Positions 167 to 62,231 of a stretch of 64,000 bases of DNA are shown piece by piece. The position numbers and the translations under genes are program-made. The stretch is from an uncultured delta proteobacterium (lineage in GTDB: Bacteria; Desulfobacterota; Desulfobaccia; Desulfobaccales; 0-14-0-80-60-11). How positions within the stretch are numbered: position 1 is the stretch's first letter; each line of letters opens with the position of its first letter. The notes beneath the pieces are model-generated. The model ran no database searches, had not been told where the DNA came from, and saw only the letters and a list, made by a program, of their open reading frames with translations. Location: NCBI GenBank assembly GCA_963797235.1, contig CAWCOX010000004.1, positions 462,400 through 526,399 of the forward strand. The letters run 5' to 3'.

Positions 167-204
167 CGTAGGCCGGGAAAGCGCCGCGCCTCCCGCCTTT
201 AGCA
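167..204. repeat. GC-rich REP-like hairpin (CGTAGGSCGGGAAAGCG..GCGCCTCCCGCCTTTAGCA)
   Basis: Inverted repeat GGCGGGA/TCCCGCC. Near-identical copies at 452-489 and, reverse-complemented, at 54407-54441. Related GGGCGG..CCGCCC hairpins near 1223-1247, 39127-39152, 50357-50388 and 53884-53908. Confidence 0.7.
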
Positions 205-519: not shown

Positions 520-1066
520 CCCCTGCAAAACCAAAAACTCGAAACTCGGAACTATCTTCGCTTTTACTGGCCCCTGACCCCTGACCACTGACCACTGTCT
601 CTTCTGTTCTGGCCATTTCTCTCCCCCGGCCTTACCTTATGTGCATGTGTAACTTAACCGCCTCTCCCCCGAACCGCCCGCCCTTCAAGCGGCATAAATG
701 CGGCACAACCGCGGCACCACCACGACGCTTCAGCGGTCCCGGACCGCTAAGTCAGCGCCACCTCAGAGAACTAAATCCAGCCAATATAAGGTACTTATGC
801 GCACCAAATTGCGGAATTTTTTCAGCTGCCGGCACAAGCTGGCCCCGATTGGCCACTTTTTTCGGCGCGAAGTCCCTGCAAACCCGGCCGACTCACCTGG
901 AAAACCTAGTAATATGCAGCTACTTGGATGATGTACAATTTTTCTCTTCCCTAAGTTGTACTTGGCATTGCCTTTTTCGCCCCCAGGCCCGGCCTGGCCA
1001 CCATTGCCGTTCCCAATGCAACTTGGGAACCAGGGGAAACCGTGATTAACCCGCACCTCAAAGCAG
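520..1066 (+). repeat. Dispersed ~0.5-kb non-coding repeat, copy 1
   Basis: Block-wise ~75-80% nucleotide identity to the reverse complement of 54873-55345. Example: ATGTGTAACTTAACCGC at 645 corresponds to 55246 on the minus strand. A partial third copy lies at 43245-43372. Contains three GCGGCA boxes at 689, 700 and 711, exactly 11 bp apart. Confidence 0.8.
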
Positions 1067-1382
1067 TCACTTTCTTAACTCCCTCCCCCTTGAGGGGGGA
1101 GGGCTGGGGTGGGGGTGGTGCAGGCAGTTTCTTTCCCTTGCAACGGGATTATCTGATCTTAAGTTTTTCTAAACTAGTCGCTCTTGAGCCTTGGGCTCAC
1201 CCGTAAATTATCAAAAGGTTGGTGGGGCGGGCGTCTCGCCCGCCATCTCAGTGCGCCGTGCCCCCACATTTTTGCGGCTTGCTTTGCGACTTTGCGTCTT
1301 GTGCGTGAGATCAAGCTTTTCTGAACCGCCTATGAGCCGGTTGGCTGCACCTTGCGCTCCTTGAGATTACGAAAGGAACCCT

Positions 1383-14471: not shown

Positions 14472-14540
14472 GATTAGCCCATGTGAAACTAATAACAATG
14501 ACTTTATATTGTTGGCAGTTGCAAATATTAATGCTTTTCC

Positions 14541-14641
14541 AGAAAAGCCAAACCCGTCGCGAGGCGAGGGCGGAAAGCCACGGGTCTCATGGATGGAGAC
14601 AGCCGGGTCGCCTGGAAGCATAACCCGGGATCCATTTTTTA
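14541..14641 (+). promoter_or_regulatory. c-di-GMP-I (GEMM-I)-like riboswitch with intrinsic terminator
   Basis: RNA reads GCCAAACC-CGUC-GCGA-GGCG-AGGGCGGAAAGCC-ACGGGUCUC..GAGAC-AGCCGGGUCGCC, followed by hairpin CCGGGU..ACCCGG plus U6. It has the same blocks as the copies at 57.4 and 57.6 kb. It also resembles the Vc2 aptamer as I recall it (CAAACC, GNRA hairpin, GGGACGCAAAGCC, AGCGGGGUUACC). Confidence 0.7.
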
Positions 14642-14836
14642 CTTCCGGTCGCATCACGGAGCGACAGAAAAGGCGTCTTCGGCGTCAACCCCGCCGCCTT
14701 AGTTTTAGCAGGCGGAGTCCAGGTAGCATCCGACGTCGAGGCGGCACCCGTACCCATACCGCCCAGCGCCCTCCTCCTGGGTTCGGGCCTGCTGGGCCTG
14801 GTGGGGCTGGGCTGGAGGCGTAAGAAAAGCCAATAA
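14624..14836 (+). pseudogene. PEP-CTERM protein remnant (C-terminal sorting signal only)
   Basis: The open frame has no start codon and ends ..AAPVPIPPSALLLGSGLLGLVGLGWRRKKSQ*. The tail is ~80% identical in nucleotides to that of the gene at 55498-56193. It lies directly after the riboswitch terminator. Confidence 0.7.
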
Positions 14837-18609: not shown

Positions 18610-18617
18610 ATCATCTT

Positions 18618-18758
18618 CAGCTATCAGCTTTCAGCATTCAGCATATCAGCTTTTTAAATAAAAATAATTTGTTCCGTTACCTCAACCAATCAACATTATC
18701 GACCTAATGTGCTAACTCATGGTTTTTGCTGATAGCTGAAAGCTGACTGCTGAACGCT
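18618..18758. repeat. Long imperfect inverted repeat built from GCTGA-NN heptamers, with an AT-rich loop
   Basis: Left arm CAGCTATCAGCTTTCAGCATTCAGCATATCAGC, right arm GCTGATAGCTGAAAGCTGACTGCTGAACGCT, ~75-nt AT-rich spacer. It fills the whole cyoD-cyoE spacer. Confidence 0.7.
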
Positions 18759-23602: not shown

Positions 23603-24783
23603 TCATTCTTCGACATAATGTAAAAAGTGCTCCGATGTGCCCAAAAATTCCGGCTCATAAGGGACCACGGTCTTGGGCTGGAACCAGGTCTGGGCAATAA
23701 AGGTCGGCACCACGGCGGAGCCGATGACCACCGTCACCAGGACGGAATATTGGGACTGGCTGATAATGCCGCGGGTCAGCCCGTAAAGAGCCGAGATGCT
23801 GCCGAAAGTGAGGCCGGTGGCCATGAGCAGGGTGGTGTAATTACTTTCCCTGATGCGGCATCTTAAAGGCCCGGCATAGCGGCCAGACCCCGATGATTTT
23901 GGCGGCGATCTTAACCCCCAAGAGGATACGCGATCAGCACGATTCCCGTGTACAAAGCCGGCAGGGAGATCAAGGCGCCCGCCTTAATAAAGAAAAACGG
24001 GGTCAACAAGGTGAAGGTAATGGTCCGCATGCGCCGCATCAGGACCTTGTCCCGCACGAACACGCCGGCGACCACCAGCCCGAAGAGATAGGCCGGCAAG
24101 ACCGCCTCGCTGTTGGCCGTGACCGCCAGGGCGCCCAGAAAACAGAGCACCAAAAAGACGAATTTGACTTCCGGCTCGCTGACCCGGCCGCCCCATTTGG
24201 AGAACATCCAGCGGCTGACCCGCGGCAACAGCCACAGGGCAATGCCGGTAACCACGACAAACACCAGCATCCAACGGTTAAAATTGGCAAACAGCACCCC
24301 CAAGGCCAGCACCGTGCCCAGGTCGGTGACGAAACAGGCGGCCAGGATGAGCTTGCCGATGTCGGTCTCATTCAGGCCGGTCTCCACCATGACGGCATAG
24401 ACCACGGCCACCGAGGTGGTGGACAGGGCGATGCCGGCAATCTCGGCGGCTTGCAGGTCCCAGCCGGTGACGTAATAGGTGAAGGCCATGGCCCCCAGGA
24501 AAGGAAATAAGAAGGAGATGAACCCGATGACCAGGCTGGGCTTGAGATGCTTCTTGAAGGAGGCGGGATCGATTTCGGCCCCGGCCAGGAAGGTCAGCAT
24601 CATGGAGCCGAAGGCGGCCAGGACGTCGATCCAGGGAGCGGAATGGAATCCCAGAAAGTTTCCTGCCAGTACCCCCAGGAAGATTTCCACCAGGGCCACC
24701 GAGATGCCGGTGCGGATGGAAATGAGGCTGGCCGCCAGCGCTACGCCCAGCCAACTGGCCGCAGTAAACCAGACCTGTTCCAC
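23603..24783 (-). CDS. Cation:proton antiporter (CPA2 / Kef-type), frame-disrupted twice
   Basis: The 290-aa ORF (GTG 24783) has a Na_H_exchanger-type TM pattern. The sequence continues as LGVKIAAKIIGVWP.. and then ..NYTTLLMATGLTFGSIS.. in two other frames. The shifts are at a G5 run (~23913) and near 23835. Confidence 0.75.
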
Positions 24784-24947
24784 TTTAATCCTCCTGCTGC
24801 CGGGATGGAGGGCAATAAAAAAGCCCCTGCTTCACCAAAGGTGAACACAGGAGCCATCAGCGTCGGCGCGGTTCGGGTGGATTTATCCTCCCAGGCGGAC
24901 CCCATCGCCTCGCCCCCCAAATTAAGGCCGCGGCTCAGCGAATGCAA
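24784..24947 (-). promoter_or_regulatory. Structured 5' leader with intrinsic terminator upstream of the antiporter (candidate riboswitch or attenuator)
   Basis: Possible promoter TTGCAT-17-TAATTT (24947-24919). The leader contains hairpins GGCG..CGCC and GGGAGGAU-AAA-UCCACCC. A 14-bp terminator stem (24823-24856) plus U6 (24817-24822) sits ~35 nt before the RBS and GTG. Confidence 0.45.
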
Positions 24948-25046: not shown

Positions 25047-26342
25047 TTAGGGTGATACCGCTGACGTGGAGGCGAACCCGGCGCGTAACAGTGAATCCCG
25101 GCTGACCATGCCTTGATAAATCCCCTCCGCATCGATAACCGGCAAACGCTTGATCGCCCGCTCCAACATCAGTTGCAGGGCTTCATCTATCGGGGCGTCT
25201 TCCTGAACCGTCACGATGTGGGTGTTCATGATCTCACCGGCAGTCTTCAGTTCCAACTGCCGCTGGAGATCCTGGTGCCGGCGCCCCCGCTCGGTAAAGG
25301 GAATTTTGCTCACAAAATAATCCCAGATACCCGGATGGCGCTCGGAAAAAGCGACCAGGAGGTCCCGATCCGAGATCAACCCCAGGAAACGTCCTGCCTG
25401 GTCCACCACGCCAACCCGTTGCAGGTCATTGCGGTCAATGAGACGAATCACTTCCTCGACAGGAGTGTCGGGAAGCACTGTCGGAGTGTCTCGGCGCATG
25501 ATGTCGGCAACGGAGCGCAAATTTTCCACCCTGATTTCCTGCGCTTGAAAGGCTTTCCAGTCCGGGGATTCCCGCATACTGGTGCGAAACACGTCCACCC
25601 GCGAGAGGATGCCGGCCAGTCTTCCGGCGGCATCGACCACCGGGAGGCGCTTCACCTTTTTTTCAAGCATTAATTGAACCGCCTCCGTTACCGGCTTATC
25701 CTGCTCTATCGTCACTGCCGGCCGCGTCATGACTTCTCTGGCCCTCCTCGGTGCGAGCGCCTCCAGGACCGCGCTCACTTTTTGGCGATCCGATTCCGCC
25801 AGCAAACCGATCCTCATGGGCATTCCGGCCTTATAGATTAAATCCCCCTGGGCGATGACTCCGACCGGCCGGTTCTCTCCATCCACCACGGGCAGGCCGG
25901 TAAAAGTGGAAGAGAGCAGCAGGCGGGCCACTTCGGCCAGCGAGTCGTCCAGGCCGACCTTTTTCGGAGCCGGAGTCATGATGTCTCGCACCCTGGTCTG
26001 TCTGGGGATGAGAATGCCCCGGGTCCGATGGGAAACGACGCTCAAATCCTGCACCGCCACGATACCGTCGGTGACCATCTCCGCGGCCTTCGCCAAGATC
26101 CGCTCAGACTCGGAAGCCGGCACGATAATCGTAATCCGCACCGGCATGTTGTAGGAGAGGACCTCAAGCCTGCCGGTGGCCAGCTCCCCACTTTCATAAG
26201 AGCCCTCTATCCCCCTGGTCACCAGACAACGCGCCGCGATCTTCAAGTCGTGGACAAATTGGACGACGGCAGCATAAAGGGGCTGCCCCTGCCACCGCGC
26301 TTCCTCACTGCTAAAGATCTCAATCTTTTTATACTGCTGCAT
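25047..26342 (-). CDS. DUF190 (CrcB-associated, PII-like) domain fused to four CBS domains
   Basis: The N-terminus MQQYKKIEIFSSEEARWQGQPLYAAVVQFV.. is DUF190-like. It is followed by 4 CBS modules (..IMTPAPKKV.., ..VMTRPAVTI.., ..IMRRDTPTV.., ..IMNTHIVTV..). AAGGTGAGG RBS. It lies 14 nt after crcB. Confidence 0.7.
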   Translation of the reverse strand: MQQYKKIEIFSSEEARWQGQPLYAAVVQFVHDLKIAARCLVTRGIEGSYESGELATGRLEVLSYNMPVRITIIVPASESERILAKAAEMVTDGIVAVQDLSVVSHRTRGILIPRQTRVRDIMTPAPKKVGLDDSLAEVARLLLSSTFTGLPVVDGENRPVGVIAQGDLIYKAGMPMRIGLLAESDRQKVSAVLEALAPRRAREVMTRPAVTIEQDKPVTEAVQLMLEKKVKRLPVVDAAGRLAGILSRVDVFRTSMRESPDWKAFQAQEIRVENLRSVADIMRRDTPTVLPDTPVEEVIRLIDRNDLQRVGVVDQAGRFLGLISDRDLLVAFSERHPGIWDYFVSKIPFTERGRRHQDLQRQLELKTAGEIMNTHIVTVQEDAPIDEALQLMLERAIKRLPVIDAEGIYQGMVSRDSLLRAGFASTSAVSP

Positions 26343-26355
26343 AATTAGCCTCACC

Positions 26356-26730
26356 TTACCTTAGGCGGCCCACCAGCATGCCCAGAAAAACCAAGGCTCC
26401 ACCAATGAGGTTGTTGGAAAGAAAGTTGGCCAGGGTGACCAGGTGCGTTCCCGCCCGCATGGAATTCACCGTCTCCAGGCCAAAGGTGGAAAAGGTCGTC
26501 AGGGCCCCAAGATACCCGGTAACAAAAAAGAGGCGAATCGAAGGGTTCATGATGCTGAAGCCGCGGTCGGCCAGGGCAAAAGAGAGACCGATGAGAAAGC
26601 AGCCTGAAAGGTTGACGATAAGGGTTCCCCAAGGGAATCTGGTGCCAAAAAGCTGCACGGCCAGCAAGGACACGCCATATCGGGAGAGCGCCCCGATGCT
26701 GCCGCCTAACATTACCAGGACTATTTTCAT
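26356..26730 (-). CDS. crcB: Fluoride channel CrcB/FluC
   Basis: MKIVLVMLGGSIGALSRYGV.. ..GTLIVNLSGCFLIG.. ..GYLGALTTFSTF... An alternative start at 26817 overlaps the pepP stop (TAATG). Confidence 0.85.
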   Translation of the reverse strand: MKIVLVMLGGSIGALSRYGVSLLAVQLFGTRFPWGTLIVNLSGCFLIGLSFALADRGFSIMNPSIRLFFVTGYLGALTTFSTFGLETVNSMRAGTHLVTLANFLSNNLIGGALVFLGMLVGRLR

Positions 26731-26816
26731 GATCCAGCCATCATGCCTGAGCAGCTGCCGCAGCCAATTAAGGGCGAAGAGTTTCTCGCCGCGCCTTTTC
26801 CCCTTTTCCCCGCTCA

Positions 26817-27926
26817 TTAATCCCACTCGTAAAAATCCACATAGCCATTCAACACTTCGGCTCCAGCCGTCTTGATCAGGGCCATATCCTCCAGCCGCAC
26901 CCCGCCCCAACCCGCCAGGTAGATGCCCGGCTCCACGGTCACCACGCTGCCGGCCTGGAGCACCGTGCGGCGCTCCGGGATGGGGCTCAGGGTGGGGTTT
27001 TCGTGGACTGCCAGGCCCACCCCGTGGCCCAGGGAATGGCCGAAGGCCTCGCCGTAGCCACCGTCGGCAATCACCTGCCGGGCCAGGGCGTCGGCGTCCA
27101 GGCTATCCATCCCGGCCTTAAGCCCCGCCTCGGCCTTAGCCTGGGCCCGGCGCACCAGGCTGTAGATCTTCCGGAACTGCTCATCCGGCGGCCCCAGAAT
27201 ATAGGTGCGGGTGATGTCGGCGCAGTAGCCGTGCAGCCGGCCGCCCATATCGATGATAATGGGCTCGCCGGCCTTGAGGACATGGTCCCCCGGCTGGTGG
27301 TGGGGCCGGGCGCTGTTCTCACCGGCGGCCACGATGGGGGCAAAGGCCATGGACTGGCACCCCCCTTCCCGCAGACCCCGTTCGATCTCCCAGGCCACCT
27401 GGCTTTCCGTCTTCCCCGGGGTGAGCTCCCGGGAGACCTGGCGCAGCACCGCCTCGCTTAGTTCCAGAGCCCGGCGCATGGCGGCCAGTTCCTCCGGGGC
27501 CTTCACTTCCCGCAGCTCTTCCACCACCCCTTCCAAGGGGCGCCACTCCACCTGGACCCCTTTGGAACTGACGGTTTCAGTCAAGCGTTGATAGGCCCGA
27601 AAGGTAACGTGGGCCGCTTCGAACCCCAGCCGCCGCACCCCAAGTTCCTGGAGCAGCCCGGCCAGGGTTTCCCCCAGGCTCACCTGATAAATCACTATCT
27701 GAAAGGCCGGGGCCTCCTGCCGGGCCCAAAGCTCGTAGCGAAAATCGGTGAGCAGCACCGCGGCGGCCGGGGTGATGAGCAGGGCGCCCCAATCGGCATC
27801 ATCGGCAGTGAAGCCGCTGAGATAGCGGCGGCTCGCCAGGCCGGAGACCAGCAGAGCATCAATTTCCCGCCGGCTGCAAAGATCTCTCAAGGCGCCCAGA
27901 CGCGGCATTTCGAGGGAGGTTGACAT
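26817..27926 (-). CDS. pepP: Xaa-Pro aminopeptidase (M24B)
   Basis: Creatinase-like N-terminal domain plus an M24 core (..DMGGRLHGYCADITRT.., ..HSLGHGVGLAVHE.., ..VVTVEPGIYL.., ..GVRLEDM..). ATG at 27926. Confidence 0.85.
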   Translation of the reverse strand: MSTSLEMPRLGALRDLCSRREIDALLVSGLASRRYLSGFTADDADWGALLITPAAAVLLTDFRYELWARQEAPAFQIVIYQVSLGETLAGLLQELGVRRLGFEAAHVTFRAYQRLTETVSSKGVQVEWRPLEGVVEELREVKAPEELAAMRRALELSEAVLRQVSRELTPGKTESQVAWEIERGLREGGCQSMAFAPIVAAGENSARPHHQPGDHVLKAGEPIIIDMGGRLHGYCADITRTYILGPPDEQFRKIYSLVRRAQAKAEAGLKAGMDSLDADALARQVIADGGYGEAFGHSLGHGVGLAVHENPTLSPIPERRTVLQAGSVVTVEPGIYLAGWGGVRLEDMALIKTAGAEVLNGYVDFYEWD

Positions 27927-29817: not shown

Positions 29818-30778
29818 ATGCGAAGCTTCCCGGCCCCAGCGATCACCCGCAGAAAACGGCAAATAGCCAAACGAAAATCTTTCATTTTCCTCACTCTGAC
29901 CCTGCTGGTCATCTGGGGCTGCGGCCCCGCCGCCTCCAATCCCATCGCCGTCTTCTGCTCCCCGGACTCGCCCCGGATGCAGCAGGCCATCGCCGCCCTG
30001 CGGGAAAATCTGCCGGACGCTCCCCTGGAAGTGGTCTGCGTCCCGGAATTCGGCGATGAACTCAAGGCCAGCCTGCGCCGCCTTCGGCAACTCAAACCCC
30101 GGCTGCTGGTGGTCCTGGGTACCCCGGCTTTTATCGCGGTGACCCCGGTGGAGAAACAGCTCCCGGTGGTCTTCGCCCTGGTGGCCGACCCTTATTTTAC
30201 CGGCGCCGCCTCTGAGTGCGGAAGACCACCAGGAGAATCTCACCGGTATCGCCTCGCCGGCGCCCCTGGAGGCGGCCCTGCAACAGGGCGCCGGCCTCCT
30301 GGGCCAGGCCTCCTGGGGGCTGTTGTATGATCCCAGCGACGGGATAGCTGCAGAACTGGCGGCCGAATTCACCCGAAAAGCCCCGCAGTTCGGGATCACT
30401 CCCCTGGTTGAGGCCAGCACCCGAGCGGCTTCTGACCCCCAGGCCTTGAAACGCCTCTTGGGCCGGGGTGCGAGGGTAATATACCTCCCGCCCGCGGCCA
30501 GCGCCGGGCGCTACGCTTCTCTGGTGCTGGACCGGGGCCGTCGGCTGCAGGTCATGGTGGTAAGCGGTTATCCCGAAGGTTCCCATCAAGGGGCGCTTTT
30601 ATGGGTGGCTTTGGACTACCGCCGCCTGGGCGAAGAGGCCGCCGCCCTGGCCCAACGGGTCCTGAAAGGCGAGGCCCCCAAACAGATTCCCATCGCCCAG
30701 GCGACTCCTTTAAAGGTAGAAGTGGATGAAAAGCTGCTGCGCCATTGGAGCGGCTATCCCGGAAAAAATTGGCAATGA
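29818..30778 (+). CDS. ABC-transporter substrate-binding lipoprotein (ABC_sub_bind/BMP-like), frame-disrupted
   Basis: Lipobox ..LLVIWGCG. The two ORFs 29818-30330 and 30323-30778 join as ..ADPYFTGAA/LSAEDHQENLTGIASP... The shift is near 30205-30212. Confidence 0.6.
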
Positions 30779-30790
30779 ATAAAACATTTT

Positions 30791-30876
30791 CACCACCAAA
30801 ATACCGAGGGCACCACGAAACACCAAGAAAATCATTGCCTTGGTGCGCCTTGGTGATCTTGGTGTCTTGGTGGTGA
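30791..30876. repeat. CACCAAG-heptamer hairpin element, copy 1
   Basis: The left arm is rich in CACCA(A/C)G units, and the right arm is CTTGGTGCGCCTTGGTGATCTTGGTGTCTTGGTGGTG. It lies immediately 3' of a stop codon. Confidence 0.75.
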
Positions 30877-30907
30877 AGCATTTATTTCGATTGGCTTGGA
30901 GGATTAC

Positions 30908-39806: not shown

Positions 39807-42307
<2,501 letters not shown>

Positions 42308-42314
42308 AAAATCT

Positions 42315-42434
42315 CACCACCAAGTCACCAAGAGCACCAAGATTCACGAAGGATTGTTTCCTTGTGGTGGATAAATTCACCACAAAGATATAACTTTCTT
42401 GGTGTGTCTTGGTGCCCTTGGTGTCCTTGGTGGT
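42315..42434. repeat. CACCAAG-heptamer hairpin element, copy 2
   Basis: CACCACCAAGTCACCAAGAGCACCAAG ... CTTGGTGTGTCTTGGTGCCCTTGGTGTCCTTGGTGG. Directly 3' of secA. Confidence 0.8.
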
Positions 42435-43064: not shown

Positions 43065-43244
43065 CGGTAAATCAAGGCCGCCGGTCCGGCGGCCAAGGCT
43101 CCAAACCCCGGTTTCCATTACTGACATTTTGCACTGCCGATTTATTTATTATTTTCCAATAGTTACCATCACTTGCCTCCACTTTCCCGCAAAAAAGGCT
43201 ACCTTTGTTGCGCTTTTGGCATCCTTCGATTCCGGGTCATTCAT

Positions 43245-43372
43245 CCATTCTCTTCTGGAAATTTATCTCGTCCTGATTTAGGTTATTTTAAATGGCAAAC
43301 AACCGCTCCACCTCCGGGATGACTTCCCGCCAGCGGCACAAATGCGGTACAAGAGCGGTACCGGAATGCTGA
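43245..43372 (+). repeat. Partial third copy of the ~0.5-kb dispersed repeat
   Basis: TTCTGGAAATTTATCTC ... AACCGCT ... then GCGGCA, GCGGTA, GCGGTA at 43333, 43344 and 43355 (11-bp phasing), matching the 5' part of the copies at 520-1066 and 54873-55345. Confidence 0.65.
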
Positions 43373-43594
43373 TGAGGTGTTAAGTTTCCGGCTCGTTAGT
43401 GGCATAATTATAAAAATATCAGCAACTTTTGCTGATCAACTTGCGGCCGATCTTGACGTTCCGGAACAGGAATGGTCTAATTAAAGCCTTTTAAGGCGAT
43501 TTAGGGCGTTCTAAAATTACCTTAAAAGTTAGCTTCCCAACCTGGCTGCAAAAGAGTGTCATTCTGTGCTCCATTACTTATTAAGGACAAGCCC

Positions 43595-54848: not shown

Positions 54849-54872
54849 GCGCAGCGAGGGTTCGCCGGCCTA

Positions 54873-55345
54873 CTGCTTGGAGGCGCAGGTTTGGCAATTT
54901 TTGGGTCCCGGTTTTGAGCCGGCGGCTAAAAAGGCAATGCCAGCTTGAACTTAGGGCAAGAAAAATTGTGCATAAAGCAACTAGCTGAATATTGCAAGAA
55001 TTTTCAGGTGAGTCGGCCAGTTTGGCGCGATTTGTACGGTGAAGATAGGACACAATCGGGGCAGGCTGTGCCGGCATCTGAAAAAATTCCGCATTTGGGT
55101 CCGCATAAGTTCCTTATTTTGCTAAGTTTAGTCCGCTGAGCGGCCGCTGACTTAGCGGTCCGACACCGGAGAAGGGCCGCTGATGTACCGCAATTGTGCC
55201 GCCTGGCGGCCGGGAGGTTCGGGGGTAAAGCGGTTAAGTTACACATGGAGATAGGGTAAAGTCAGCGGAGAAAAATTTCCAGAACAGCCGAGAGAGTTGA
55301 CCCGATTGAAAGTTTGAGGTCAAGGAGATAGCTATTTTTCTTAGA
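54873..55345 (-). repeat. Dispersed ~0.5-kb non-coding repeat, copy 2 (inverted relative to copy 1)
   Basis: The reverse complement aligns block-wise with 520-1066 and has the same three 11-bp-phased GCGG(C/T)(A/C) boxes. Confidence 0.8.
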
Positions 55346-55497: not shown

Positions 55498-56193
55498 TTA
55501 GCTCCGTTTCCGCCAGCCCAAGCCGACCAGGCCCAGCAGGCCGGAGCCCAGCAGCAAGGCGCTGGGGGGGATGGGAACGTAGACACCGTCTCCAGGGCAT
55601 GTTCCGAAATAAAATGTTGCGGATTCAATACCCGTACCGCTGTTAACTCCTGGGATAGATAAAACGAAACTAGCAGTTTGATTAAGGAACGGGTTGTGCG
55701 GTCCGTTGCCGGCAATCGACGCGTTCGCATTGCTGTAAGTGCCGCCGGTATCAGCCGGACCGATAAGAGTGTCCTTCGGGCCTGCGCCGCCGGTCCCCAG
55801 ATCGTTGAGCAGAAAGCTTAAGGAGCCAGTTTGGGACAGCACCCATCCAGTTGGGACGGTTGAGCCAGGGCTAACGGTCCCACCCGAGGTTATAGAAATA
55901 TTTTGTGAAGACGAGCTTGTTTCTGAAATTGAGCCTGTTTGCGTGAAGCTGGTTAACACGAAAGCAAGACCGCTCAAGCACTGGGCGACACTTTTCGGAT
56001 TAGCCAATTTGTTAGTTATTGTGATGTCGACCTCGTTAGAGAGTGTGGTGATTGTGACCAACGCATCTATCGGGTTGCCACCACTTTCAGTGATGCCGGG
56101 CCATGTCTCCCAAGTCATCATGCTCGCCGACGCCGGCGTGATCCAGCATGTCAAGGCCAAAATGACCAACATTACTAAAGTTTTTCGTTTCAT
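55498..56193 (-). CDS. PEP-CTERM sorting-domain secreted protein
   Basis: Signal peptide MKRKTLVMLVILALTCWITPASA. Ser/Thr/Gly-rich body. C-terminus ..VPIPPSALLLGSGLLGLVGLGWRKRS (P-x-P motif, TM segment, basic tail). GGAGGAGGA RBS. Confidence 0.85.
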   Translation of the reverse strand: MKRKTLVMLVILALTCWITPASASMMTWETWPGITESGGNPIDALVTITTLSNEVDITITNKLANPKSVAQCLSGLAFVLTSFTQTGSISETSSSSQNISITSGGTVSPGSTVPTGWVLSQTGSLSFLLNDLGTGGAGPKDTLIGPADTGGTYSNANASIAGNGPHNPFLNQTASFVLSIPGVNSGTGIESATFYFGTCPGDGVYVPIPPSALLLGSGLLGLVGLGWRKRS

Positions 56194-56580: not shown

Positions 56581-57177
56581 TTAGCTCCGTTTCCGCCAGC
56601 CGATACCCACCAGGCCCAACAGGGCGGAGCCCAGCAGCAGGGCGCTGGGCGGGATGGGCACGGCGGAGGTTTCGACGTCGGATTGCAGGCTGATCGTCAA
56701 TCCAGTAGTGGTCCCGTGGAGCTGCGAGGTTACGTCCTGTGCAGTTCCGTTTTCCACGAGCGTACAATAATTCACGTTGCATTCGAAGTTCTGCAAGGCA
56801 GTAGAAAAGCCGGTGGCCTCATCAGAATAGAAGGTGAGAGTGAAATCTCTGACATTTTGGAATCCATCACCCAAACTAAAATAGGAACTCCCTATAGTCA
56901 GAGTCGCGAAATCACTAACGGGCCCGCCCACACACTCAAGCAATTCTACGCCAAACGTGCCAGCGCTGAGGCTGTCCTTAGCAATTGTGCCAGTTACCTT
57001 CGCATACTCAGCTGCGAGGCTAGTCTGGTAACCATAAATGGTTCCCGCGGTAGTCACCGTGGGGTTGCCATCGGTTAAGTCGCTTATGCTGATGAATGGG
57101 GTTGTGGTGGCCAACGCTTGCCCCGGGAGCCAGCAAACCAGGGCGGCCAATGCCATAATGAGAGCCATTTTCTTCAT
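56581..57177 (-). CDS. PEP-CTERM sorting-domain secreted protein
   Basis: Signal peptide MKKMALIMALAALVCWLPGQALA. C-terminus ..AVPIPPSALLLGSALLGLVGIGWRKRS. Confidence 0.85.
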   Translation of the reverse strand: MKKMALIMALAALVCWLPGQALATTTPFISISDLTDGNPTVTTAGTIYGYQTSLAAEYAKVTGTIAKDSLSAGTFGVELLECVGGPVSDFATLTIGSSYFSLGDGFQNVRDFTLTFYSDEATGFSTALQNFECNVNYCTLVENGTAQDVTSQLHGTTTGLTISLQSDVETSAVPIPPSALLLGSALLGLVGIGWRKRS

Positions 57178-57376: not shown

Positions 57377-57470
57377 TAAAAAAGCCGCGTTACCCGTTTC
57401 AGGTAACCCGGCTGTCTCTTCCTAAGACCCGTGGCTTTCCGTCCCCGCCTCACGACGGGTTTGGCTTGCA
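57377..57470 (-). promoter_or_regulatory. c-di-GMP-I (GEMM-I)-like riboswitch A with terminator
   Basis: RNA: GCCAAACC-CGUC-GUGA-GGCG-GGGACGGAAAGCC-ACGGGUCU-UAGGAAG-AGAC-AGCCGGGUUACC-UGAAAC-GGGUAACGCGGC-U6. The terminator stem uses the aptamer 3' strand. Confidence 0.75.
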
Positions 57471-57590
57471 TGTAAACTAATTATGTAATATTTCTTGTCA
57501 AGTCACTTTCAGCTAAGTCAAGTCACTTTTAACTAATTTTTCCTGGCTTTTCGCTGGAGGCCTCCCCTGCATGACTGGATTGGCCCAAAT

Positions 57591-57682
57591 AAAAAAGCCG
57601 CGGTCGCCCTCTTCAGGCAACCCGGCTATCTCTTCCTAAGACCCGTGGCTTTCCGTCCCCGCCTCACGACGGGTTTGGCTTG
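57591..57682 (-). promoter_or_regulatory. c-di-GMP-I (GEMM-I)-like riboswitch B with its own terminator (tandem with A)
   Basis: The aptamer is identical to A except for one position. Its terminator is GCCGGGUUGCCUGAAGAGGGCGACCGCGGC-U6. A degenerate third copy lies at ~57697-57748. Confidence 0.75.
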
Positions 57683-57756
57683 TCTTCGTTAGTGGCGATC
57701 TCTTCCTTAGAGCCTTGCTCTGCCCTCATCGCCTCACGTCGGCATCATTTGTGTGT

Positions 57757-61841: not shown

Positions 61842-62141
61842 ATGATACTAGCTATGAACACCATACGCCAACTGATTAAGGAATTGTTGCTGGAGGAGAC
61901 CCTCTCCAGCCTGGAACTCTCCCAGCGCCTGTCGGTCTCGGAAAAAGAGGTCCTGGACCACCTGACCCATATCGTCCGGGCCCCAGGGCCGGGTTGCCGG
62001 TTTCAGATAACCCCCGCGGTCTGCAAAAATTGCGGTTTTGCCTTTAAAAAGCGGGAGCGCCTCACCATTCCGTCCCGCTGTCCCATCTGCCAGCACGAAT
62101 CCATTCGCCGGCCGCGCTTTGCGTTGGTGCGGCAAAAATAA
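61842..62141 (+). CDS. Small HTH plus zinc-ribbon regulator-like protein
   Basis: 99 aa. N-terminal winged-helix-like region (..LSSLELSQRLSVSEKEVLDHL..). C-terminal CxxC..CxxC (CKNCGF..CPICQH). Confidence 0.55.
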   Translation: MILAMNTIRQLIKELLLEETLSSLELSQRLSVSEKEVLDHLTHIVRAPGPGCRFQITPAVCKNCGFAFKKRERLTIPSRCPICQHESIRRPRFALVRQK

Positions 62142-62148
62142 GAAATCT

Positions 62149-62231
62149 AACCACCAAGACACCAAGAGCACCAAGTTCCACCAAGAAATGATCTTGGTGA
62201 CCCCTTGGTGTCCTTGGTGCCCTTGGTGGTA
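62149..62231. repeat. CACCAAG-heptamer hairpin element, copy 3
   Basis: ACCACCAAGACACCAAGAGCACCAAGTTCCACCAAG-AAATGAT-CTTGGTGACCCCTTGGTGTCCTTGGTGCCCTTGGTGGT, between convergent genes. Confidence 0.85.

Follow-up and report, generated by a model that had tools for sequence, protein, structure and literature searches.

The 64,000-nucleotide (nt) stretch of an uncultured Desulfobaccales genome analysed here (contig CAWCOX010000004.1, positions 462,400–526,399; hereafter the window) carries three copies of an element that represents a new family of bacterial interspersed non-coding repeat, within which a GCGG motif recurs in phase every 11 nt. The element has been copied or inserted into unrelated intergenic sites, where it has been gained, lost, truncated and partly duplicated. 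At a rough probability of 45%, we favour the reading that this is a low-copy, clade-restricted family of dispersed intergenic mosaic repeats that exist and spread as DNA and contain a selected phased GCGG array.

The two long copies, A (583–981, forward strand) and B (54924–55308, reverse strand), form an inverted pair of one repeat element, ~76–79% identical. A repeat finder linked them by five collinear inverted segments (594–984 versus 54921–55297, 71–86% complementarity), and an nhmmer profile recovered both together with a third, diverged copy, C (E values in Table 1). The pattern AACCGC-N20-34-GCGGCANAANTGCGGNACANNNGCGG, a 26-base motif taken from the most conserved part of the element, matched the window three times and had no match in 100 shuffles. 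Boundaries were set from alignments of 9–12 copies, with the core limits of A and B defined from 12, and the core measures 385–399 nt across alignments. A first-pass annotation of the sequence had drawn the inverted pair more widely, at 520–1066 and 54873–55345. All nine conserved blocks that it quoted are present in both long copies, and its wider 3′ side holds through a shared block, AACC.GC.CCTC.AAGCAGT (1044–1070 and 54871–54903); its 5′ side does not, positions 520–582 being a heptamer array and unrelated DNA. The third copy that it placed at 43245–43372 (~130 nt) is present, yet longer, at 43232–43471 (~240 nt).

The repeat unit has three parts. The 5′ part (~100 nt) has a sharp edge (CCGGGTCA); the edge lies at CAACCGGGTCAAC and is common to the truncated copy C. 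In the middle lies an array of ~143 nt, built of thirteen degenerate 11-nt units in which GCGG keeps a constant phase, and the more variable 3′ part (~150 nt) ends in GCCTTTTTCGCC, the 3′ limit of the core. Small accessory repeats (heptamer arrays, REP-like hairpins and a G-rich hairpin) join the core in varying combinations. Heptamer arrays of the AACCTTG or ACTGACC type lie on its 5′ side. A REP-like double hairpin sits 3′ of the core in copy A and at L004, L002, L005, L008, L009 and L011 (L001–L021 label the loci compared with the window) and also occurs without a core, for example at L006 (4142–4241) and L011 (4870–4925). The 3′ accessory module of copy A is common to L003, L009 (95% identical) and L020, and partly to copy B.

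Copies occur in relatives too, a point that the first-pass annotation had proposed to check by BLASTN. The 26-base pattern located five loci in bacterial contigs that represent each species by one genome, all from Desulfobaccales or 'delta proteobacterium' metagenome-assembled genomes (MAGs), one of the five on a 3.6-kb contig binned as Bacteroidetes, and three further loci in metagenomes. Identity by BLASTN was 75–86% over 390–455 nt in seven of these eight loci, and more copies were added by walking to orthologous loci via neighbouring proteins. In total, 13 full-length and 3 partial copies were read as DNA, every one from Desulfobaccales or 'delta proteobacterium' MAGs or close metagenomic relatives. 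Searches of plasmid, phage and viral-contig collections returned no match to the element, and a literature search for Desulfobaccales non-coding RNA or such an element found nothing. The family is confined to a narrow group of Desulfobaccales, of roughly genus rank. Three copies lie in the 64-kb window, and representative MAGs, which are contigs and not complete genomes, had one or two pattern matches each. The genes beside the copies differ (CBS-HPP, CLC channel, MgtC, LigD, CN-hydrolase, acyltransferase, esterase, PEP-CTERM-like protein and argJ). An exact-sequence look-up of the window's CBS protein returned no record.

For all three window sites, there are near relatives that lack the element. 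Site A is occupied in L009, L010 and L011 and empty in L012, L013 and L015; site B is occupied in L019 (99.2% identical) and L020 (91.1%) and empty in L021; and site C is occupied in L018 (908–1159) and empty in L016 and L017. L021 and L009 belong to the same 2.07-Mb contig (ena:ERZ25039458 contig_62611), which thus carries the copy A ortholog with site B empty. At the empty sites of L012, L016, L017 and L021, the entire intergenic DNA differs, so no junction could be read for a target-site duplication.

Divergence was measured where orthologous copies persist. Synonymous divergence (pS) of neighbouring genes from the window was 0.02–0.22 in element-bearing genomes. At site A, the element was 86.2% identical (13.8% diverged) to that of L010, with neighbouring genes at 92.9% nucleotide identity and pS 0.09, and 77.9% identical (22% diverged) to that of L009, with genes at 92.1%, pS 0.15 and short intergenic regions of this genome pair 75–88% identical. 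At site B, the element had diverged by 8.9% from L020 (pS 0.04–0.12) and by 0.8% from L019 (pS 0.02–0.04), and at site C, it was 84.5% identical (15.5% diverged) to the copy of L018 (ArgJ pS 0.22). Taken together, divergence of the element is similar to the synonymous and intergenic baselines, approximately what unconstrained DNA would show. Strong purifying selection had been a first impression from the non-aligning flanks and was dropped once these baselines were computed.

The copies also carry traces of decay and rearrangement. A neighbour-joining tree was star-like with long terminal branches, and same-locus copies were not clearly closer to one another than to copies at other loci. Copy A is a mosaic: its 5′ part has derived states in common with L009, its 3′ part with L004. 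At L011 (4870–5370), ~340 nt comprising the upstream REP-like flank and the 5′ 209 nt of the element are tandemly duplicated beside a full copy. Indels of 1 nt and 11 nt occur among copies; the L011 and L009 assemblies carry frameshifted genes, and single-base indels there may be sequencing errors. Copying, rearrangement and loss of this sort mark a dispersed repeat and not a conserved gene.

The same history could belong to a relic with no function. In the clade ancestor, ectopic recombination among small repeats, or a mobile element since extinct, would have copied a segment a few times; the copies would now be decaying neutrally, and the GCGG effect would be an artefact, post hoc or mutational, that an old tandem array left behind. 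The first-pass annotation had preferred a structured RNA or a protein-binding cassette to a decaying duplication. That contrast did not survive the approximately neutral divergence of orthologous copies and the finding that some copies are truncated or partly duplicated and that close relatives differ in which copies they have. Together with the star-like tree, these observations agree with a relic. We nevertheless consider it unlikely, given how substitutions are distributed within the element. The number of substitutions per site is over-dispersed (index 1.75); of 380 sites, 179 are invariant where 125 would be expected, and the 5′ 230 nt, about two thirds of the element, show 0.4–1.0 changes per site versus 1.5–2.5 in columns 287–350. 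At fine scale, invariant-site runs were no longer than after permutation; the first-pass description of conserved blocks separated by variable spacers is therefore unsupported.

The protected positions follow the phase of the central array. In L003, GCGG occurs at positions 112, 123, 134, 145, 178 and 222, all in one phase, and in each of the six copies tested, self-similarity was strongest at lag 11 (z 2.9–5.9). Four copies (L004, L002, copy A and the L018 copy of C) differ in unit number, in each case by exactly 11 nt. At GCGG-phase positions there were 0.58 changes per site, compared with 1.43 elsewhere (permutation P = 0.0007), with no base-composition effect, and the protection recurred within orthologous groups (counts of 13/104 in the GCGG phase versus 50/180 elsewhere; Fisher P = 0.003). 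Both results count against the relic, and they point to the phased GCGG motif as what would be the only selected feature of the element.

A spacing of 11 nt equals one helical turn, which suggests that a protein or protein oligomer may dock on, or wrap, one face of the DNA at the phased GCGG cores. Analogous cases are REP/BIME elements, to which gyrase and IHF bind, and the 11-bp direct repeats bound by response regulators. The first-pass proposal of a multi-site protein-binding cassette gains some support here, from the phasing of GCGG every 11 nt and its protection from substitution. The fuller proposal is that the 143-bp array is a selected docking or wrapping site for an oligomerising DNA-binding protein (for instance gyrase, a nucleoid protein or a response regulator of the winged-helix type) or, should the element be transcribed, that a ~400-nt sponge RNA sequesters an RNA-binding protein; we regard it as quite unlikely. 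Elsewhere, three phased units, TTGCGGCACAAG TGCGGCACAAT TGCGGCGTGCG, were seen at L007 (1108–1164, reverse strand), ~90–140 nt from the start of a divergent open reading frame (ORF); L007, a metagenome contig of 2 kb, is unrelated and very GC-rich. The units may hint that GCGGCACAA serves as a binding motif at 11-nt spacing outside the clade as well, or they may have arisen by chance.

Several points weigh against the favoured reading of a spreading DNA repeat with a selected array. The GCGG phases were picked after the motif had been seen. An assumption-free autocorrelation of site variability showed nothing at lag 11 (0.05), and in the copy C pair (window versus L018), GCGG-phase positions are not protected and GCGG units are lost; both observations speak for a relic. 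The 11-nt phasing could be the mere footprint of an old tandem duplication. The 2–3 times slower change of the 5′ 230 nt relative to columns 287–350 could reflect an unseen RNA or regulatory function, and one ORF is open through much of the element in several copies. On the side of mobility, no terminal inverted repeats, recognisable target duplication or transposase were found, which leaves the mode of spread unexplained. Copy number is also low, unlike that of classical REP, BIME and MITE families: 1–3 copies were seen per genome, although these are not complete-genome counts.

Dispersed copies with presence and absence among relatives, as in MITEs, were found. The consensus ends, CAACCGGGTCAACTG... 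and ...TTGCCTTTTTCGCC, are not complementary and so provide no terminal inverted repeats, and neither terminal inverted repeats nor subterminal hairpins of the IS200/IS605 type were seen. In agreement with the first-pass annotation, neither a transposase nor an integrase gene was found next to any copy or elsewhere among the window genes, a search that did not extend to whole genomes; a single integrase gene was seen, ~9 kb from the copy in L010. As in REP/BIME elements, the copies are intergenic, often between convergent genes, and form modular mosaics with small palindromic units.

An alternative in which the element acts as RNA is an independent non-coding RNA gene family of ~400 nt with 2–3 paralogues per genome, weakly structured, either sequestering a protein through GCGG motifs or base-pairing through C-rich seeds. 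Its ends are defined, it is independent of neighbouring genes, including at convergent positions, and a T-run at the 3′ end is often followed by hairpins. Its repeated motif and paralogues recall the sponge small RNAs CsrB/C, RsmX/Y/Z and CrcZ/Y, which likewise measure ~350–400 nt, occur as 2–3 paralogues per genome and rely on a repeated short motif rather than a covarying fold. Those RNAs, however, are conserved and have defined regulated promoters and terminators, whereas the element shows neither, diverges approximately neutrally and is lost in close relatives. RNA binding, moreover, needs no exact 11-nt phasing. With the tests that follow, these points make an RNA gene unlikely.

The structured RNA suggested by the first-pass annotation was not borne out. 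Rfam models gave no match to the element at gathering score across the whole window, searches of both long copies and L003 relaxed to E ≤ 10 brought up nothing meaningful, and a scan for transfer RNA and transfer-messenger RNA found none. RNAalifold returned a positive covariation term, that is, a penalty, on both strands (+3.9 and +3.95 with 9 copies, +1.5 with 12), and the fold changed once three sequences were added. In the 12-copy alignment, 28 of 54 predicted pairs were invariant and 2 had two-sided change, each in one sequence, compared with 0–2 such pairs when partners were slid by 1–3 columns. Copy A and L009 break long-range helices of the 9-copy fold and have no compensating changes there, and an all-pairs scan for helices with compensatory changes yielded noise only. 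Folding energies were ordinary relative to shuffled sequences (z +1.6 to −3.1 in 8 copies; means ~−0.7 forward and ~−1.0 reverse). Covariation power was limited by the 12 sequences at 82% identity; the result is therefore one of no evidence for a structured RNA, rather than proof of its absence.

Signals for transcription were sparse too. At a fixed alignment column, neither a sigma-70 site (at least 8 of 12 positions) nor a sigma-54 site was present on either strand, other promoter types lying outside these scans. A sigma-54 reading of TGGCATTGCCTTTTT was rejected on wrong spacing and a motif that is not conserved, and reverse-strand GG-N10-GC occurred in only 8 of 11 copies. TTGACG-N17-TCTAAT in copy C was considered as a sigma-70 site; it lacks the −11 A and fails the scan. 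No conserved hairpin with a T-run, as in an intrinsic terminator, was found among the copies, and CsrA-type GGA motifs, counted by eye in the alignment, were neither enriched nor conserved.

Could the element instead be a portable cis-regulatory cassette, a transcription-factor site array with a promoter that controls the downstream gene (CBS-HPP at A, argJ at C, and MgtC, LigD and others elsewhere)? Direct core repeats at 11-bp spacing have the geometry of OmpR/PhoB-family sites, and several copies are oriented towards a downstream gene. The best argument comes from copy C, which keeps exactly the 5′ 240 nt, ends ~125 nt upstream of the argJ start codon (43595) and replaces the ancestral upstream region. 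The best counter-argument is copy B, between convergent genes. The copies of L004 and L006 face the 3′ end of a convergent gene and, like copy B, have nothing to drive; a leader or riboswitch reading is excluded for these three copies on the same ground. No promoter was recognised beside the array, promoter-like sites are not conserved, and the downstream genes share no functional theme. We regard a cassette as improbable.

The argJ upstream region itself is 530 nt long (43065–43594), copy C included, in the lineage of the window and L018, and is a 150–200-nt unrelated sequence in L016 (9852–10000) and L017 (9802–10000). The entire region has been replaced, and the argJ promoter must therefore differ between close relatives. 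Copy C may have been carried in with the replacing segment, or may have been co-opted into it.

The possibility that the element is a fast-evolving small protein gene is practically excluded. An ORF starting MCNLTALPP... is open for 80–136 codons in 6 of the 9 copies translated, and a library of 1.84 billion representative proteins contains 17 clusters (P0361–P0377) of predicted 137–184-aa products covering the element. The ratio of non-synonymous to synonymous divergence (pN/pS), however, was 0.8–1.1 in this frame and 0.6–1.5 over all six frames and blocks. The 11-nt tandem duplication shifts the frame in L004 and L002, frame-shifting indels of 1 nt or 11 nt also occur in L009 and copy A, and the ATG is gone in L001. 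No Shine–Dalgarno sequence precedes the ATG, and no Pfam family matched. A separate idea, a small ORF of the type I toxin kind, was discarded for want of a conserved start codon and a hydrophobic peptide.

The first-pass annotation had called the element non-coding and had named a conserved protein in one of its frames as grounds for revision. To the letter, the 17 clusters supply one; on testing, pN/pS was ~1 among the copies and the cysteines of the database ORFs proved not to be conserved, and the non-coding call stands. Because only long ORFs enter protein libraries, the database ORFs are a biased sample, and the 17 clusters are probably translated non-coding DNA, that is, spurious gene calls. 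They do show that the family is wider and more diverse than the copies read as DNA. The element is not a protein gene.

The first-pass annotation had also seen the inverted pair as a substrate for a 54-kb inversion covering dsr, cyo and secA. The window genes do include dsrAB, a quinol oxidase cluster and secA. The longest exact match between copies A and B is only 18 nt, which is short for efficient homologous recombination, and the inversion is for this reason unlikely. Local adjacencies at both copies are unchanged in relatives: L009 keeps the element next to the CBS gene, and L021 keeps the 123-aa gene next to the PEP-CTERM-like gene, as in the window. On ERZ25039458 contig_62611, the CBS-HPP locus (L009) and the 123-aa-gene locus (L021) lie ~560 kb apart on opposite strands, compared with 53 kb apart on the same strand in the window. 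A rearrangement has therefore occurred, but not between the repeats; a breakpoint of this large rearrangement lies somewhere between ~12 kb and ~30 kb of the window.

Among known systems, the closest in working are the REP/BIME/ERIC-type mosaic repeats and MITE-like elements, although the element fails the defining MITE tests, having neither terminal inverted repeats nor a transposase. Like the REP/BIME and ERIC/IRU families of enterobacteria, it is non-coding and intergenic, often at 3′ ends or between convergent genes, and is a mosaic of small modules with no internal transposase and variable presence among relatives. Its core is ~390 nt rather than 35–130 nt, is not palindromic, is low-copy and contains an 11-nt phased array. 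No RAYT-type transposase of the REP/BIME kind was seen for it, though none was sought genome-wide. BIMEs are known to bind gyrase, IHF and DNA polymerase I as DNA, and the present element may likewise bind a protein. With MITEs and other non-autonomous insertion-sequence derivatives, such as Correia elements, it shares dispersed non-coding copies with sharp ends, filled and empty sites, a star-like phylogeny and an occasional co-option as a gene upstream region. It differs from them in lacking terminal inverted repeats; no target-site duplication could be recognised, no transposase-bearing parent was found, and only 1–3 copies were seen per genome.

The array invites a further comparison, with OmpR/PhoB-family sites (pho boxes, the 11-nt direct repeat units of Streptomyces and the CtrA motif TTAA-N7-TTAA). 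In both, short cores recur in phase at 11-bp spacing with variable unit number. The element differs in having up to eight phased GCGG cores over 110–140 bp, with no recognisable promoter adjacent, no cognate regulator identified and, for some copies, no gene to regulate.

Table 1. Positions of the element copies and their modules in the window
Feature	Position	Strand	Description
Copy A core	583–981	+	399 nt; nhmmer E 1e-139; orthologous copies upstream of CBS-HPP in L009, L010 and L011
Heptamer array, ACTGACC × 4.6	566–597	+	Stands in for the usual 5′ end CAACCGGGTCAAC of copy A; Tandem Repeats Finder and alignment
Central degenerate 11-nt array of copy A	687–841	+	GCGG in phase; one extra diverged 11-nt unit (insertion seen in alignment); lag-11 z 4.0
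Optional REP-like double hairpin, 3′ of copy A	983–1030	+	CCAGGCC..GGCCTGG, then GTTCCCAA..TTGGGAAC
3′ accessory module of copy A	1044–1120	+	AACCCGCACCTCAAAGCAGTCAC, then G-rich hairpin CCCTCCCCCTTGAGGGGGGAGGGCTGGGGTGGGGG
Copy B core	54924–55308	−	385 nt, between the 3′ ends of two convergent genes; nhmmer E 1e-131
Central 13 × 11-nt array of copy B	55062–55204	−	lag-11 z 3.5; alignment register
Partial 3′ accessory block of copy B	54871–54903	−	AAATTGCCAAACCTGCGCCTCCAAGCAGT; aligns with copy A 1044–1070, L003 and L020
Copy C	43232–43471	+	Diverged, 5′ 240 nt only; nhmmer E 1e-23, model positions 9–250

Small repeats are dense throughout the intergenic DNA of the window (168–197, 347–372, 453–482, 566–597, 18617–18653, 30778–30877, 42302–42432 and 62136–62228). 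Among them are a REP-like hairpin, GTAGGGCGGGAAAGCG..TCCCGCC, and 7–9-nt tandem arrays, for example of the CACCAAG type, which at three loci also form inverted pairs. Modules of this kind recur in related loci and turn over fast between close relatives.

We also noticed riboswitches in the window. Three cyclic di-GMP-I (c-di-GMP-I) aptamers lie at 14537–14615 (+) and at 57398–57474 and 57612–57688 (−), the latter two in tandem, 214 nt apart. Each is upstream of a small secreted-looking protein with a PEP-CTERM-like tail (55498–56193, 56581–57177 and an ORF ending near 14823), and NCBIfam PEP-CTERM models match these proteins only below cut-offs. A fluoride riboswitch (24841–24918, −) lies directly upstream of a Na+/H+ exchanger ORF (23911–24783, −), with crcB (26356–26910) and a DUF190-CBS gene (25047–26354) just upstream on the same strand.

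For annotation, the value of the finding is that 'hypothetical proteins' of 137–184 aa in at least 17 database clusters are to be treated as spurious, and that the element does not belong among structured RNA candidates. It is a marker for a narrow Desulfobaccales clade and exemplifies the fast turnover of repeat-rich intergenic DNA in these genomes. If the phased GCGG array is a protein docking site, for which the evidence is modest, it would offer a new handle on regulation or chromosome organisation in one uncultured group of sulfate reducers. Each genome's 2–3 copies would in that case make up a small system, confined to the clade, for regulation or for structuring the chromosome, in which the cassette would be movable and could be co-opted, as at argJ.

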